64,000 nt of DNA from a bacterium (GTDB lineage Bacteria; Patescibacteriota; Microgenomatia; Levybacterales; UBA12049). The notes below the pieces were generated by a model that saw only the letters and a list, made by a program, of their open reading frames with translations, did no database searches and was not told the origin of the DNA. Position numbers and translations under genes: made by a program. How positions within the stretch are numbered: position 1 is the first letter of the stretch; the number at the start of each line of letters is the position of its first letter. Where the stretch lies: NCBI GenBank assembly GCA_021780675.1, contig JAJXYH010000034.1, positions 19,889 to 83,888 of the forward strand, read 5' to 3'. Positions 5,970 through 15,514 of this stretch are shown piece by piece.

Positions 5970-6686
5970 ATGAATAGTAAAGGTTTTGTAATTGCAATTG
6001 ACGGTCCGGCTGCTTCCGGGAAGGGAACTATTACCAAGATGTTAACGACATCTTTAAAGGGAGTTAATATCTACACGGGAGGCATGTATAGAGCACTGGC
6101 GTTAAAGTGTTTGCGGGAAAAAGTTTCATTCGAAGATAAAGAAGGAATTATTAAATTATTAGAAAATGTAAATATTTCGCTTGGAGTAGAAGATAATTTA
6201 AGTGAAGTTGCAAAAATTTACTTGGACGGAGAAGATGTTACCGAAGAAATCAAAACGCCGCAGGTAGGAATCGGCGCAGGGAAGGTAGTTTTAATTTCGC
6301 AGGTTAGAGCAGAAATGGTTAAAAGGCAATTTAAAATAGCAGAAAAACTGGTAAGGGAAGGAAAAGTTGTAATCTTTGATGGGCAAGACACTGCTCTTAT
6401 TTACCCTGATGCAAAGTTAAAGATTTTTTTAATAGCAAGTCAAAAAGCCCGCGCAATAAGAAGACAAAAACAATATGAAAAGGCGGGACTTAAGAAGTCA
6501 GAAGAAGAAATGTTTTTGGAAATAAAAGACAGAGACGAAAGAGATTGGAATAGGGATTTGCGTCCTCTTTCCAAAGATCCCGTTGGAGACGGATATTTTT
6601 TAATTGATAGTACAAATCTAGATGAAAATAAAACATTTAGAGTTATAATAGATGAGTTAAAAAAGAAAAGGGTAATTTATGATTAA
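5970..6686 (+). CDS. cmk: cytidylate kinase
   Basis: IAIDGPAASGKGT P-loop typical of Cmk; 238 aa. Confidence 0.8.
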   Translation: MNSKGFVIAIDGPAASGKGTITKMLTTSLKGVNIYTGGMYRALALKCLREKVSFEDKEGIIKLLENVNISLGVEDNLSEVAKIYLDGEDVTEEIKTPQVGIGAGKVVLISQVRAEMVKRQFKIAEKLVREGKVVIFDGQDTALIYPDAKLKIFLIASQKARAIRRQKQYEKAGLKKSEEEMFLEIKDRDERDWNRDLRPLSKDPVGDGYFLIDSTNLDENKTFRVIIDELKKKRVIYD

Positions 6687-7431
6687 AATTAAAACACCCC
6701 AAGAAGTTAAAATAATGGAGAAAAGCGGTCAGATGCTTTCCGAAGCTATGTGGGGGCTTGTTAAAGCAATTAAACCGGGTATGAGTGAAATTGAATTGGA
6801 TGTACTGGCAGAAAGACTAATAAAAGAAAAAGGTGGGGAATCCGGATTTAAAAAAGTCGAGGGTTATAAACATACGGTTTGTATGTCTACAAACGATGTA
6901 TGTGTTCATGGAATTCCGTCTAATTATAAGTTTAAAAACGGTGATGTAGTAGGAATTGACTGTGGAGTTTACTACAACGGATTCCACACCGATATGTCGG
7001 AAACGGTTGTTATTGGCGGTACATCTAAACAAGTAGAAAAGTTCCTTAATATCGGCAAAAAAGCCCTCGAGGAAGGCATAAAGCAAGCTAAAGTAGGAAA
7101 TCATGTAGGAGACATTTCTAAGGCTATACAGGACATTGTAGAGGCTCAAAATGGCTACTCTGTAGTTAGAAGTCTGGTTGGACACGGTGTTGGCAGGGAA
7201 TTACATGAAGATCCCGAAATTCCAGGTTATATACATGGAAAAATTGAGAAATCACCGCTTCTTAAAGAAGGAATGGTTATAGCAATTGAGGTTATCTATA
7301 ATATGGGAAAATCAGATTTAACAATTGATGATGATGGTTGGACACTTAGGACGCGGGATGGTTCACTTTCTGGGTTATTCGAGAGAACAATTGCAATAAC
7401 AATGGCAGGTCCTAAAGTTTTAACACCATAG
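6679..7431 (+). CDS. map: methionine aminopeptidase type I
   Basis: 250 aa; pita-bread fold motifs (VCHGIP, GIDCG, HED) in the conserved position after adk. Confidence 0.9.
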   Translation: MIKIKTPQEVKIMEKSGQMLSEAMWGLVKAIKPGMSEIELDVLAERLIKEKGGESGFKKVEGYKHTVCMSTNDVCVHGIPSNYKFKNGDVVGIDCGVYYNGFHTDMSETVVIGGTSKQVEKFLNIGKKALEEGIKQAKVGNHVGDISKAIQDIVEAQNGYSVVRSLVGHGVGRELHEDPEIPGYIHGKIEKSPLLKEGMVIAIEVIYNMGKSDLTIDDDGWTLRTRDGSLSGLFERTIAITMAGPKVLTP

Positions 7432-7482
7432 CTTTATAAATATTATCTTAATATTACATTGCATTTAAATTAAAATAAAATA

Positions 7483-8046
7483 ATGTATAATTATTTTATG
7501 AAAATACTTCATTTTTCAGATCATGATGATCCAGAATTAAAAAATTTATTTGATTTATGCGATGTTTTAATATCAACAGGAGATTTGTCAACTTTTTCTT
7601 TCGAAGAAATAAGAGATGTTATATCTAGTAAACCTGCTTTTGGTGTATACGGAAATCATGATGCTCCCACATACCTAGAAAATTTAGGTATTCAGAATGT
7701 TCATCTAAAAACTGTTCAATTTGGGAATATGGTAATTGGGGGATATCAAGGGTGTCCCCGATATAAGCCCGGCGGAGGCCCACAATTTACCGAGTATGAA
7801 GCTTTAAGAGATTTGGCAAATTTCCCCCGCGTAGATATTCTCTTGTTGCATGCTGCACCTTTTGGATTATTAGATACTCCGGGAGATATTGTGCATAAAG
7901 GATCAAAAGCAGTTAGAGACTATGTTGACCGAACAAAACCGTTATATATATTTTGTGGTCATGATTCTCCTTCGGAGGAAATGGTATACGGTAATACTAA
8001 AATTTATCGAACTGATAGAGCAAAATTAATTCAAGTAGATTTATAA
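7483..8046 (+). CDS. calcineurin-like metallophosphoesterase
   Basis: Motifs HFSDHDD, TGDL, GNHD, CGHD in a 187-aa ORF. It interrupts the conserved map-infA junction. Confidence 0.65.
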   Translation: MYNYFMKILHFSDHDDPELKNLFDLCDVLISTGDLSTFSFEEIRDVISSKPAFGVYGNHDAPTYLENLGIQNVHLKTVQFGNMVIGGYQGCPRYKPGGGPQFTEYEALRDLANFPRVDILLLHAAPFGLLDTPGDIVHKGSKAVRDYVDRTKPLYIFCGHDSPSEEMVYGNTKIYRTDRAKLIQVDL

Positions 8047-8127
8047 GTTTACTTTAGTTTTTAATAAACGGTAGCAACAGAAAACTCCGGACCAAAAGTT
8101 TTTTTGCCTTTATACCCTAAACAAAAA

Positions 8128-8156
8128 TTGACATAAATATAAATTAAATTTATTAT
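8128..8156 (+). promoter_or_regulatory. sigma70-like promoter for the inserted gene at 8164
   Basis: TTGACA (8128-8133), 17-nt spacer, TATTAT (8151-8156), 7 nt before the ATG at 8164. Confidence 0.5.
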
Positions 8157-8163
8157 TAATATA

Positions 8164-9285
8164 ATGCCTGATATCCAAGAGGATAATTTACATCAACCAA
8201 AGCCCAATATTCCTATTCCAACAGGAATTAATACTTCTATTTATAGAGAAGAGATTCCCCAAAATTCATCACAAAGGCAAATAAAATATCCACCCTTTTT
8301 ATGGGATAAGACTCAAGATTTAATAAGACAGATTGAAGAAAAGATAAATATGAAAATTTTAGTATATTTTACAAGCAATACAACAAGAATAACCAATGAT
8401 GATGTTGAATATTTTTTTGCTCATTTAAGAGAGATTGAGCCAGGGACATCCTTGGGATTAATATTAATAAGTAACGGTGGATCGGTTACTGCTTCGTGGA
8501 GAATTGCTAGTTTATTAAGATCTTATTGCAAAGATTTAACTGTGATTATTCCAAGTAGGTGCGCATCAGCTGCCACACTTTTAAGTTTATCAGCAGATAA
8601 GATTTTATTTGGTCCTACAGGATTTTTAACTGCGATAGATTCCTCCATGATGCACGAATTAAATCCGAGGCCAAACGAAAAAGCCCAACCTGTTTCAGTA
8701 TCTGTAGATCAAGTTAACAGAATAAGTAATTATATTATAGAGGATTTAAAAAATCATCCAAACGGAAAAGGTGCATCCGAAATTATGTTTGAGAAAATCC
8801 ATCCCATCGTATTTGCTGAATTACAAAGATCAAGTAGTTTAAGTAAATTAGTTGCTAAAAATATGATGAAATTAAGAATTAATCCACCATCAGAAGAAGA
8901 GACTCTGAAAATTGCAAATTTACTTAATGATGCTTATCCTGCACATATTTATCCCATTGTTTTTAAGGAAGCATCGGAAATGGGACTTCCTGTAGAAAAA
9001 ACTTCCAATGAATTATCTTCTTTATTATGGGAAATGGTAAAAATATACGTTTTAATTACAAAACCAGTTTATAGCGATTTAACAAGTATTTCATATCATT
9101 TTGAAGAAATGCCGGTAGTAATTGAATCTTTAAATAAAAGAACATATTATGCTATTTCAAAAGATAGCAAAATTTCCGATGCAACCAAGCTATGGTATAG
9201 AGATAATGATAAAACAGGGTGGTATGTTGCTAAAAAAAATAATAACCTCGAACAGAATCCAGTAATAAGTCAAATTTTAGATTAA
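8164..9285 (+). CDS. SDH-family / ClpP-fold (S49-like) serine protease homolog
   Basis: ILISNGGSVTASWRIASLL...CASAATLLSLSADKILFGPTGFLTAIDSS matches the ClpP/SppA/SDH proteinase core. 373 aa. Confidence 0.5.
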   Translation: MPDIQEDNLHQPKPNIPIPTGINTSIYREEIPQNSSQRQIKYPPFLWDKTQDLIRQIEEKINMKILVYFTSNTTRITNDDVEYFFAHLREIEPGTSLGLILISNGGSVTASWRIASLLRSYCKDLTVIIPSRCASAATLLSLSADKILFGPTGFLTAIDSSMMHELNPRPNEKAQPVSVSVDQVNRISNYIIEDLKNHPNGKGASEIMFEKIHPIVFAELQRSSSLSKLVAKNMMKLRINPPSEEETLKIANLLNDAYPAHIYPIVFKEASEMGLPVEKTSNELSSLLWEMVKIYVLITKPVYSDLTSISYHFEEMPVVIESLNKRTYYAISKDSKISDATKLWYRDNDKTGWYVAKKNNNLEQNPVISQILD

Positions 9286-9386
9286 ATTCCCTATCGACTA
9301 TCTAGTTTTAAAAGGAGAAATGTCGAATATGTCCCAATCTTTTACATAGAGTTGTATTCTATGATTGTTTTTGTAATAATTTTATT

Positions 9387-9812
9387 ATGACGGTTGTCAG
9401 GACTTTTAAGTGTAATAAATGTGATTTTTCTTTTAAGGGAGCAAACATATATGGTTTTGTAGCATATGATGATAACGGGAATAGATATTCTTGTAATGCA
9501 AGACCCGATAAAGTTGCTGAAACAATTTCGAAGGTGTTTAATTTGTCTCCTGAAATAGCTGAGAAATGGGCTAATTTTAAAAATGACGAAGTCCCTGAAG
9601 ATATCAGGAAAAAATTAGCAGACAATACTGGTATGGAGTCTTTATTTATATGCTTAAATTGCCTTGCGGAAAACTATATTTATGTAAGAAGAGATAAGCT
9701 TCGATGTTCAAAATGTAATTCTGTATCGATTATGAGTCCTTATGATTGTTGTCCAAAATGTAGAGAAGGTAAAATCGAAGCGGAGGGCATCCTTAAACCT
9801 TCTGATAAATAA
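9387..9812 (+). CDS. double zinc-ribbon protein (hypothetical)
   Basis: Four CxxC pairs (CNKC, CLNC, CSKC, CPKC) in 141 aa. Confidence 0.5.
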   Translation: MTVVRTFKCNKCDFSFKGANIYGFVAYDDNGNRYSCNARPDKVAETISKVFNLSPEIAEKWANFKNDEVPEDIRKKLADNTGMESLFICLNCLAENYIYVRRDKLRCSKCNSVSIMSPYDCCPKCREGKIEAEGILKPSDK

Positions 9813-9924
9813 AGAAAGTTTGTGTTGTGCACTGTTTGAATAATTGCTCTTTTTAAAGACTTTTGCTATAATCAACTAATAAATTCTAAATCCATGAAGA
9901 TCATGGTATAGGATTTGTATTTTT

Positions 9925-10143
9925 ATGGCTCATCAGGGATCAATAGAAATGGACGGGATAGTAAAAGAATCTCTTCCCAATACTTTATTTAGGGTTGAGC
10001 TTGAAAATGGTCAAATCATACTTTGTCACTTATCAGGTAAAATGAGAATGAATTTTATAAAAATTCTTCCCGGAGATAAGGTAAAAGTAGAAATGACCCC
10101 ATACGATAAGGAAAAGGGAAGAATAATTTATAGAGGGAAATAA
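9925..10143 (+). CDS. infA: translation initiation factor IF-1
   Basis: 72 aa S1-like OB fold ([31 protein letters not shown]). Confidence 0.95.
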
Positions 10144-10145
10144 TT

Positions 10146-10259
10146 ATGAAAGTTCAAGCAAGTGTTAAACCAAGATGTGCAAAATGTAAAATTATTAAAA
10201 GGCGAGGCGTGCTTTATGTAACTTGCGATAATCCAAGGCATAAGCAGAGGCAAGGTTAA
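10146..10259 (+). CDS. rpmJ: 50S ribosomal protein L36
   Basis: 37-aa [40 protein letters not shown], absent from the ORF track because of its size. Canonical L36 with a C-C-C-H zinc motif. Confidence 0.9.
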
Positions 10260-10274
10260 AATCGGAGATTTTAT

Positions 10275-10667
10275 ATGAGAATTTCAGGAATTAATTTACC
10301 GGATGAAAAAAGAGTTGATATAGGCTTAACCTATCTTTATGGTGTGGGAAGAAATAATGTGTATGATGTTTTGAAAAAAGCCGGAGTGGACGCATCTAAA
10401 AGAATTAAGTCTTTAACAGAAGAAGAGCAAAGGAATATCCAAAAAGTCTTAGAAACATATAAGCTTGAAGGAGACCTTAGGGTAGAAATTCAAGGAAACA
10501 TTAAAAGACTTAGAGAAATTGGAAGCTACCGTGGTATAAGACATGCAAGAAATCTACCGACCAGAGGACAAAGGACAAAGTCTAATGCAAGGACAAAAAG
10601 AGGTAAAAGAGTTACAATAGGGGCAATTAAAAAAGAAGTAGCGGCAAAAATGGGCATAACAGCATAA
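10275..10667 (+). CDS. rpsM: 30S ribosomal protein S13
   Basis: MRISGINLPDEKRVDIGLTYLYGVG canonical S13. Confidence 0.95.
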   Translation: MRISGINLPDEKRVDIGLTYLYGVGRNNVYDVLKKAGVDASKRIKSLTEEEQRNIQKVLETYKLEGDLRVEIQGNIKRLREIGSYRGIRHARNLPTRGQRTKSNARTKRGKRVTIGAIKKEVAAKMGITA

Positions 10668-14121: not shown

Positions 14122-14664
14122 TTAGAGGTACTTCTTTTTAATAGCCACTTTTACCCACGGAGCGAGATTTTCATAGATTATCCCTTTTTTATTTATTAAA
14201 TCTTCCTTTTTAACTAAAGAAAAACCGTAGGCGAAATCAAGGTTTGGCATGGTTAATTTTTTTAATTTTATTACTACAACATCATTCATTTCGTGTTCTG
14301 TATAAATGCTTTTTTTATCCTTTGCTTTGTAATAAATAGTTCCTAGAATTTTAGGTTTTCCTAAAAAATCTTTAGGTGTTAAGTTCCACTCTCTTTTTAA
14401 GCAACTTAAAGTTGCTTCAATTGTTGGTTGCAGTTTATCATTTACAAATAATTGATGAGATGAAGAAGTTAAGTCGTAAAGACCATCAAAAGCGGGATGT
14501 TTTCGGTGCTGCAAAATATATTGTCCGTTATAAATTAAGGTTACAGTTAGAGCTTTATGTAAAATTCCTTTTCGGTGAGCTTCCCACTTTTCAACCCTAC
14601 CGATAATTTTCCCTTTTCGGTTAACTTTGGCAATTATTTGTTGTTGCTTATAATAATTATTCAT
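14122..14664 (-). CDS. type-1 isopentenyl-diphosphate isomerase-like protein (Nudix fold), catalytic Cys position = Ser
   Basis: It aligns with the E. coli Idi metal ligands H25, H32, H69, E114, E116 and with W161. The motif SVCGHP is replaced by TSSSHQ. Confidence 0.55.
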   Translation of the reverse strand: MNNYYKQQQIIAKVNRKGKIIGRVEKWEAHRKGILHKALTVTLIYNGQYILQHRKHPAFDGLYDLTSSSHQLFVNDKLQPTIEATLSCLKREWNLTPKDFLGKPKILGTIYYKAKDKKSIYTEHEMNDVVVIKLKKLTMPNLDFAYGFSLVKKEDLINKKGIIYENLAPWVKVAIKKKYL

Positions 14665-14734: not shown

Positions 14735-15514
14735 TTGTTTATGAAAAGCATTATTTTTATTAAGCTTGGTGGATCCGTTATTACAGATAAAAAAATTCCC
14801 TATAAAGCCGATACTGAGAACATCAGACGGTTTGCCAAAGAGCTTAAGGCTTATAAAGGCGGTATGGTTTTGGCACACGGAAGCGGAAGTTTTGCTCACG
14901 TTTCAGCTAGTAAATATGGTGGTAAAAAAGGGTACAAGAGCTTAAAAGGTATTGCAAAAGTTGCAAGAGATGCAATGGATATTAACAGAATAGTTATGGA
15001 TATTTTGGTGGAAGAAGGATTACCGGTTATTTCCTTTAGGGCAAACAGCTTGATGATCGCTTTAAATGGTAAACTGAATAAAGATTTATTTGATGCAGCA
15101 GAACTTGCTTTAAGTCAAGGTTTAATCCCGGTTTTTTATGGAGACGTAATTTGGGATAAAAAATGGAACAGCACAATATTTTCGGGAGAAAAAATATTAG
15201 ATTATTTTTGTAAATATTTGCTTAAGAAAAAATATAAAATTGAAAAGATAATACAAGCGTCCAATACCAACGGGATTTATGACAACAATGGGAATACGAT
15301 CCCAATAATAACAAAACAAAATTTTGTAAAAATTAAAAAATATGTTTTTAATTCGGAAAATGTAGATGTTACGGGTGGGATGTTACATAAAGTAATAAAT
15401 GCTATGGGTGTTTTAGATTTTGGGATCAGTACTAATATAATAAACGGGAATGTGAAAGGTGAATTAAAAAAAGCAATAAATGGGAAAATAACAGGAGGGA
15501 CCTTAATTAAATGA
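14735..15514 (+). CDS. isopentenyl phosphate kinase (amino-acid-kinase family)
   Basis: IFIKLGGSVITDK and LAHGSGSFAHV match the archaeal IPK signature (IKIGGS, HGGGSFGH). GDVIWDK and DVTGGM motifs are also present. Confidence 0.75.
   Translation: MFMKSIIFIKLGGSVITDKKIPYKADTENIRRFAKELKAYKGGMVLAHGSGSFAHVSASKYGGKKGYKSLKGIAKVARDAMDINRIVMDILVEEGLPVISFRANSLMIALNGKLNKDLFDAAELALSQGLIPVFYGDVIWDKKWNSTIFSGEKILDYFCKYLLKKKYKIEKIIQASNTNGIYDNNGNTIPIITKQNFVKIKKYVFNSENVDVTGGMLHKVINAMGVLDFGISTNIINGNVKGELKKAINGKITGGTLIK

Follow-up and report, generated by a model that had tools for sequence, protein, structure and literature searches.

The window analysed here, the whole stretch of 64,000 nucleotides taken from contig JAJXYH010000034.1 of assembly GCA_021780675.1, begins within a ribosomal-protein gene cluster that runs rpsQ ... 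rplO-secY-adk-cmk-map and then infA-rpmJ-rpsM-rpsK-rpsD-rpoA-rplQ-rplM-rpsI. Between map, the last gene of the upstream secY-adk-cmk-map unit, and infA, which encodes IF1, lies an inserted segment with three genes on the + strand, here called genes 1, 2 and 3 (Table 1), with spacers of 117 bp between genes 1 and 2 and 101 bp between genes 2 and 3. The similarity of its Map, SecY and IF1 proteins places the organism among the Patescibacteria, or Candidate Phyla Radiation (CPR), as a Levybacteria-type member. A first-pass annotation, made from the sequence alone, had described three open reading frames (ORFs) at this place as a coherent module inserted within an operon. The ORFs were found where it had put them, but our results speak against both the module and the operon. 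We suggest that three single-gene units, unrelated to one another, have probably accumulated in this lineage at an intergenic site that tolerates insertions.

Since the source is a metagenome-assembled genome, the insert might not really lie between map and infA but be an artefact of chimeric assembly or binning. This is extremely improbable, as the identical order map-gene 1-gene 2-gene 3-infA recurs in at least three independent assemblies (GCA_021833605.1, ENA ERZ27236853 and ERZ27233572), on contigs of up to 88 kb, neither junction shows a break in GC or codon composition, and a relative carries map-gene 3-infA on a single contig. A local deviation in GC or codon usage, which had been proposed as a check, was not seen: GC (0.31-0.34) and GC at third codon positions (GC3, 0.19-0.25) of genes 1-3 fall inside the range of the neighbouring genes. 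For gene 1, the ATG at 7498 is a likelier start than that at 7483, given the gene callers and the ~180-aa length of the family. An Rfam scan of 7300-10300 gave no match, and no second copies of genes 1-3 and no pth or secDF loci were found within the window.

Table 1. Coordinates of the insert, its flanking genes and the predicted control sites
Feature	Position	Strand	Remarks
map (methionine aminopeptidase)	6679..7431	+	ORF; PF00557; 55-80% identical to Map of related Levybacteria; left flank
inserted segment, ~2.41 kb	7432..9843	no strand	from map stop codon to conserved infA promoter
promoter-like site, gene 1	7464..7491	+	TTTAAA-16-TATAAT; -10 ends 6 nt before ATG 7498; consensus match only
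gene 1	7498..8046	+	182 aa; alternative upstream ATG at 7483 (187 aa)
promoter-like site, gene 2	8128..8156	+	TTGACA-17-TATTAT; -10 ends 7 nt before ATG
gene 2	8164..9285	+	373 aa
gene 3	9387..9812	+	141 aa
infA promoter	9844..9872	+	-35 TTGCTC, 17-nt spacer with TGc, -10 TATAAT; right insert boundary, intact
infA leader hairpin	9880..9917	+	dG -12.3 kcal/mol, z -1.9; pairs with AGGA Shine-Dalgarno-like motif
infA (IF1)	9925..10143	+	first gene of infA-rpmJ-rpsM-rpsK-rpsD-rpoA-rplQ unit; right flank

Three gene families with separate histories

The assignment of gene 1 to the calcineurin-like metallophosphoesterases (MPEs) held up, with a match to PF00149 Metallophos well above threshold (39.5 bits, cutoff 21.5; E = 1.1e-9) in which residues 6-161 span profile positions 1-188 of 191. 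It belongs to a family of more than 130 Microgenomates proteins of ~180 aa, with identities of up to 73%; a comparison with solved structures gave no sequence-level match. Enzymes of this class carry the metal-binding motifs DxH, GD, GNH[D/E], H and GHxH. Across 15 members of the gene 1 family, D8, G28-D29, G52-N53-H54, H118 and G154-H155 are invariant. The single domain, the GD, GNH(D), H and GH motifs and the motif I Asp are as in the small stand-alone MPEs (PF00149/PF12850, YfcE/MJ0936-like size class). The family differs from that class in that the motif I His (DxH) and the second motif V His (GHxH) are not conserved, and the conserved residues H5 and H133 might act as substitutes for them. 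Gene 1 is thus, to the extent that motifs can tell, a plausible though slightly atypical MPE. Two of the four sampled relatives (68% and 71% identical) immediately follow pth, within a conserved ligase-pth-MPE-VTT-acylphosphatase neighbourhood, and the other two, including the closest (P0045, 73%), lie in other contexts.

Gene 2 likewise falls in the group first proposed for it, the SDH/ClpP-fold proteases. It passes the PF01972 SDH_protease threshold (45.7 bits, cutoff 31.3; E = 5.6e-12) with a best stretch that spans only profile positions 73-161 of 286, and against the NCBIfam equivalog NF047768 Clp_like_SDH it scores 59.9 bits, far below the cutoff of 250. The latter score marks it as a distant relative and not an equivalog. 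An AlphaFold model from a 24-sequence alignment, with a predicted local distance difference test (pLDDT) score of 85.7, has a ClpP/SppA fold, for which the top Foldseek matches are ClpP (E = 5e-5, target TM 0.6) and SppA. Residue S135 aligns to the ClpP nucleophile, and S135, D159, H213 and H261 are invariant across the 24 family sequences. In the SDH-type proteinases of Pfam and MEROPS the catalytic Ser, Asp and His occur in that sequence order, with which the invariant residues of gene 2 appear compatible. Gene 2 shares with the SDH-type ClpP-fold proteinases (PF01972, MEROPS S49-related, with SppA and the ClpP-like phage prohead proteases as relatives) the predicted ClpP/SppA core, an invariant Ser at the nucleophile position and invariant Asp and His residues downstream of it. 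It is unlike them in lacking a membrane segment and in its added parts: the protein has a conserved MPDIQ N-terminus and a disordered stretch before the ClpP-like core, and a helical region and a C-terminal beta domain of ~75 aa after it. Within the family the N-terminal part (8164-8300 in the window) shows a strict Met-Pro-Asp-Ile(-Gln) start, followed by a variable, Pro-rich and predicted-disordered linker of ~35-45 residues. The literature, searched for this protease group (PF01972, serine dehydrogenase proteinase) and for the ribosomal operons of Levybacteria, yielded nothing relevant.

The 38 relatives of gene 2, which are 28-59% identical to it, make up a small CPR family with home contexts of its own. 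Two homologs, including the closest at 59%, are convergent with secDF (L005 and L047), and one, among the two non-secDF contexts L004 and L007, adjoins an AAA ATPase and a HAD-Nudix gene. There are also signs of a phage-associated branch. Gene 2 matches phrog_11747 (4.8e-32), which agrees with the position of one of its relatives beside terminase and portal genes. That relative, 34% identical, lies at the end of an IMG/VR contig (UViG_3300008420_000088, 6704-7543) and is divergent from a block encoding a small-terminase-like DNA-binding protein, a large terminase, a head-tail adaptor and a portal protein. Among 50,697 phage genomes, tblastn found no match to gene 2 or gene 3.

Gene 3 has the four CxxC pairs that the first-pass annotation had counted (C9/C12, C89/C92, C107/C110 and C122/C125). 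Among the 23 sequences of its family, C9, C12, C89, C92, C122 and C125 are invariant and C107 and C110 are present in at least 90%. The predicted structure (pLDDT 92.6) contains two putative zinc sites and a three-helix insert and has no whole-fold match among solved structures, while substructures of ~35 residues superpose on the zinc ribbons of RpoP, Trx2 and MCM with root-mean-square deviations of 1.1-2.0 A. Gene 3 itself has no match in Pfam and fits no curated zinc-ribbon family model; some of its relatives weakly match Zn_ribbon_8, RPAB4 or DZR. The four CxxC knuckles are a feature that it has in common with these proteins (Zn_ribbon_8, RpoP/RPAB4-like and DZR). Two other classifications were discarded. 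A word-indexed search that found only gene 3 itself had made it appear an orphan, which was overturned by an exhaustive HMMER search, and matches to designed TPR proteins in the PDB proved to be summed sub-threshold repeat matches of ~5 bits each. The family is very rare and consists mostly of singleton clusters; a metagenome scan with a gene 3 sub-alignment and a viral scan with one relative both returned nothing. A zinc-ribbon tail occurs elsewhere in the cluster, where rplX (749-1054) encodes a ribosomal protein L24 with a C-terminal CxxC...CxxC extension, and this tail is the sole weak match (E ~1e-3) of the gene 3 family hidden Markov model (HMM) in related loci.

The distribution of gene 3 bears on the history of the insert. 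Its two closest relatives, only 44% and 38% identical, are both found at the map-infA junction. L044, the closest relative of the window's genome that was found (Map 80% identical), has a gene 3 homolog as the sole gene there, on a single contig, and on a JGI contig (3300075153) a homolog at the same junction is followed by an LCM methyltransferase gene and a 201-aa ORF. Judged by these junctions, gene 3 is a resident of the map-infA site in a Levybacteria sub-lineage; the window's genome alone shows genes 1 and 2 added to it. The constancy of its position despite such low identity, the resemblance of its zinc-ribbon modules to those of ribosomal proteins and RNA polymerase subunits, and its confident model with a fold unmatched among solved structures would all suit a lineage-specific translation-associated factor, beside which genes 1 and 2 landed as passengers. 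We consider this rather unlikely. Gene 3 is absent from most Levybacteria junctions, including those of the close relatives L037 and L012, and is hence dispensable; its family is very rare; and its linkage to map and infA may be no more than the trace of a neutral insertion at a hotspot that was then inherited vertically.

Taken side by side, the three genes differ in phyletic spread and in home context, and they do not co-occur elsewhere, so the coherent module of the first-pass annotation was not borne out. Adjacent, co-oriented genes found together in this lineage only could nonetheless suggest that all three, or at least genes 1 and 2, were acquired as a single functional cassette, with possible roles in stress response, proteolytic regulation or anti-phage defence, in which the phosphoesterase and the protease would cooperate, with the zinc protein as sensor or substrate. 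Some further points are in its favour: gene 1 weakly matches the single-gene defence-candidate model PDC-S10 in PADLOC-DB v2 (4.2e-10), the wider family of gene 2 is present in PHROGs and on the viral contig described above, and in L007 the gene 2 homolog follows a Metallophos gene, two genes upstream, and a 153-aa ORF. However, the GNHD motif is all that links the L007 phosphoesterase to gene 1, and the 153-aa ORF is not similar to gene 3. As a system the cassette finds no counterpart in PADLOC-DB v2, where gene 2 has no match and gene 3 only a spurious one (0.0098). The gene 1 family, broadly conserved and often beside housekeeping genes such as pth, does not look like a defence gene. Moreover, each gene has a promoter-like element of its own, the genes are separated by the spacers given above, and co-occurrence was found neither in 12 homolog contexts (five for gene 2, four for gene 1 and three for gene 3) nor in ~115 related loci. 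A shared cassette is therefore quite unlikely.

A probable tolerant seam between two transcription units

How unusual the insert is can be judged from loci anchored on the window's Map, of which 32 came from species-representative genomes and 79 from metagenomes. Gap statistics were taken from 71 distinct, de-duplicated loci in which Map is at least 50% identical and both map and infA are present. The map-infA gap is at most 200 bp in 65 of the 71, with a median of 96 bp, and the 2,493 bp of the window is the largest. Searches of ~115 related loci by tblastn and family HMMs found no gene of the three families except the gene 3 homolog of L044. By this comparison the insertion is lineage-specific, as had been expected; the three genes are far from uniformly present across the clade. 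Other relatives carry unrelated cargo at the same place: a 208-aa ORF preceded by a TTGACA promoter (L020, 7813-8439), a Nudix hydrolase (L051, 2079-2549), an ISNCY transposase (L102, 6912-8210 on the - strand, 3.8e-115) and ORFs of unknown function (L125, 309-1010, and L078, 1564-3012). This points to the map-infA junction as a recurrent insertion hotspot in Levybacteria.

The transposase in L102, the phrog_11747 match of gene 2 and the terminase and portal genes near its 34%-identical relative could also be taken to indicate that the segment is a decayed mobile element or a prophage remnant integrated at the junction. That origin is very unlikely, given that neither an integrase or transposase, nor flanking direct or inverted repeats, nor a tRNA was found in or near the insert (the only tRNA of the window is at 18.3 kb, far from it). 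The composition is native, genes 1 and 3 have no viral signal, and the search of phage genomes with genes 2 and 3 was empty.

Why the junction might tolerate cargo is suggested by the infA promoter. An extended -10 element, TGnTAnAAT, is present in 70 of 72 related infA leaders, against 3.5% of size-matched control windows, and the infA -35 in relatives begins 0-60 nt past the map stop codon. Because the conserved infA promoter starts just after the map stop in relatives, the insert lies exactly at the seam of two transcription units. The proposal that it interrupts an operon thus finds no support: the segment is upstream of the infA promoter, and junctions elsewhere hold unrelated cargo at this same place. 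A fuller pattern, TTGnnn-N13-16-TGnTAnAAT, was observed in 69 of 72 related loci. The infA leader also contains a hairpin, a motif common to the closest relatives only, which from its predicted pairing may be a translational control element.

Promoter-like elements were found within the insert as well. The TTGACA-17-TATTAT sequence that the first-pass annotation had read as a promoter is present ahead of gene 2 and is the best match (11/12) in a 7-kb scan. In genes 1-3 alike, a -10-like hexamer stops 6-7 nt short of the ATG (7486-7498, 8151-8164 and 9375-9387), and none of the three has a Shine-Dalgarno motif. Among 25 neighbouring genes only rpoA has this layout, and many of the neighbours have Shine-Dalgarno motifs. 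The pattern suggests that genes 1-3 are three independently transcribed units of leaderless type.

In several respects the insert and its junction resemble genomic islets at intergenic hotspots between core operons. The flanks (map and infA) are conserved core genes, occupancy varies and the cargo is unrelated across relatives, one case including an insertion sequence (IS) element, the cargo has its own putative promoters, and the site is a transcription-unit boundary. Unlike such islets, the insert is very small (three genes), has no recombinase, tRNA, repeats or compositional signature, and lies amid clustered ribosomal-protein genes in a reduced CPR genome.

The cmk gene (5970-6686) lies between adk and map, with an 8-nt overlap with the map start, which is true of many but not all related Levybacteria loci; in several relatives extra adk-like paralogs replace cmk at that place. 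Directly after rpsI, a 180-aa ORF on the - strand (14122-14664), Nudix/IDI-like by eye, adjoins a + strand gene of the amino-acid-kinase fold (14735-15514, PF00696), possibly an isopentenyl phosphate kinase. Together they may form an isoprenoid gene pair at the edge of the ribosomal cluster.

Proposed origin and meaning of the insert

We suggest the following course of events. The site would be the point at which the secY-adk-cmk-map unit gives way to infA-rpmJ-rpsM, a unit with a promoter of its own. Gene 3 was probably at the junction first, in the sub-lineage, and we infer that genes 1 and 2 came in afterwards, on its map side. The source of gene 1 was most likely the place that its family usually holds elsewhere in Microgenomates genomes, from which it was moved or copied, and gene 2 probably stems from a family of sporadic distribution, one branch of which is partly associated with phages. 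A promoter of its own would drive each gene, with a leaderless mRNA as the probable transcript, and the insert need not disturb ribosomal-protein expression, because it lies upstream of the infA promoter. As for function, gene 1 may act as a divalent-metal phosphoesterase, gene 2 as a self-compartmentalising or oligomeric Ser protease with the S-D-H arrangement, and gene 3 as a two-zinc adaptor that binds nucleic acids or proteins.

Several points weigh against this course of events. No intermediate junction (map-gene 1-gene 3 or map-gene 2-gene 3) was found among the loci, and a joint arrival of genes 1 and 2 in a single event is conceivable. The order of acquisition rests on three junctions that bear gene 3, the closest genome has a Map identity of ~80%, and the context samples are small, with 4-5 loci per family. 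The search for repeats, tRNA and integrase in or beside the insert leaves its mechanism of insertion unmarked, and with GC and GC3 host-like, any recent transfer is without a compositional sign. The promoter calls are consensus matches in AT-rich DNA. Sites that match at 11 of 12 positions are not exceptional by count (3 observed against 1.1 expected in 64 kb), and the site ahead of gene 2 is plausible because it ends 7 nt before the ATG, not by its score.

A more far-reaching scenario can also be imagined, in which leaderless single-gene cassettes that bring their promoters with them are actively targeted to the map-infA boundary of Levybacteria, gene 3 is a CPR-specific factor of new fold tied to N-terminal methionine processing or translation initiation, and the protease, with its Met-Pro-Asp-Ile start, and the phosphoesterase were recruited to that function. 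We regard this scenario as a long shot. The locus is best explained as an ordinary accretion hotspot and not as a novel three-gene system, and the current understanding of ribosomal operons is unchanged by these findings.

The case carries a caution, in that adjacency within a famous conserved gene string is not proof of a module. Two of the families are of modest interest, and on present evidence low-priority curiosities: gene 3 represents a rare family of Patescibacteria, with eight conserved cysteines and a fold that is predicted with confidence and has no solved counterpart, and gene 2 a small subfamily of ClpP-fold proteases marked out by its conserved N-terminus. The leaderless-type promoter layout of the inserted genes contrasts with that of their Shine-Dalgarno-led ribosomal neighbours. 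The conserved string is here really two transcription units with a tolerant seam, which in this reduced CPR lineage has been a recurrent landing site for diverse cargo at ~8-10% of junctions, and the occupancy of this seam informs where such small genomes can accept new genes.

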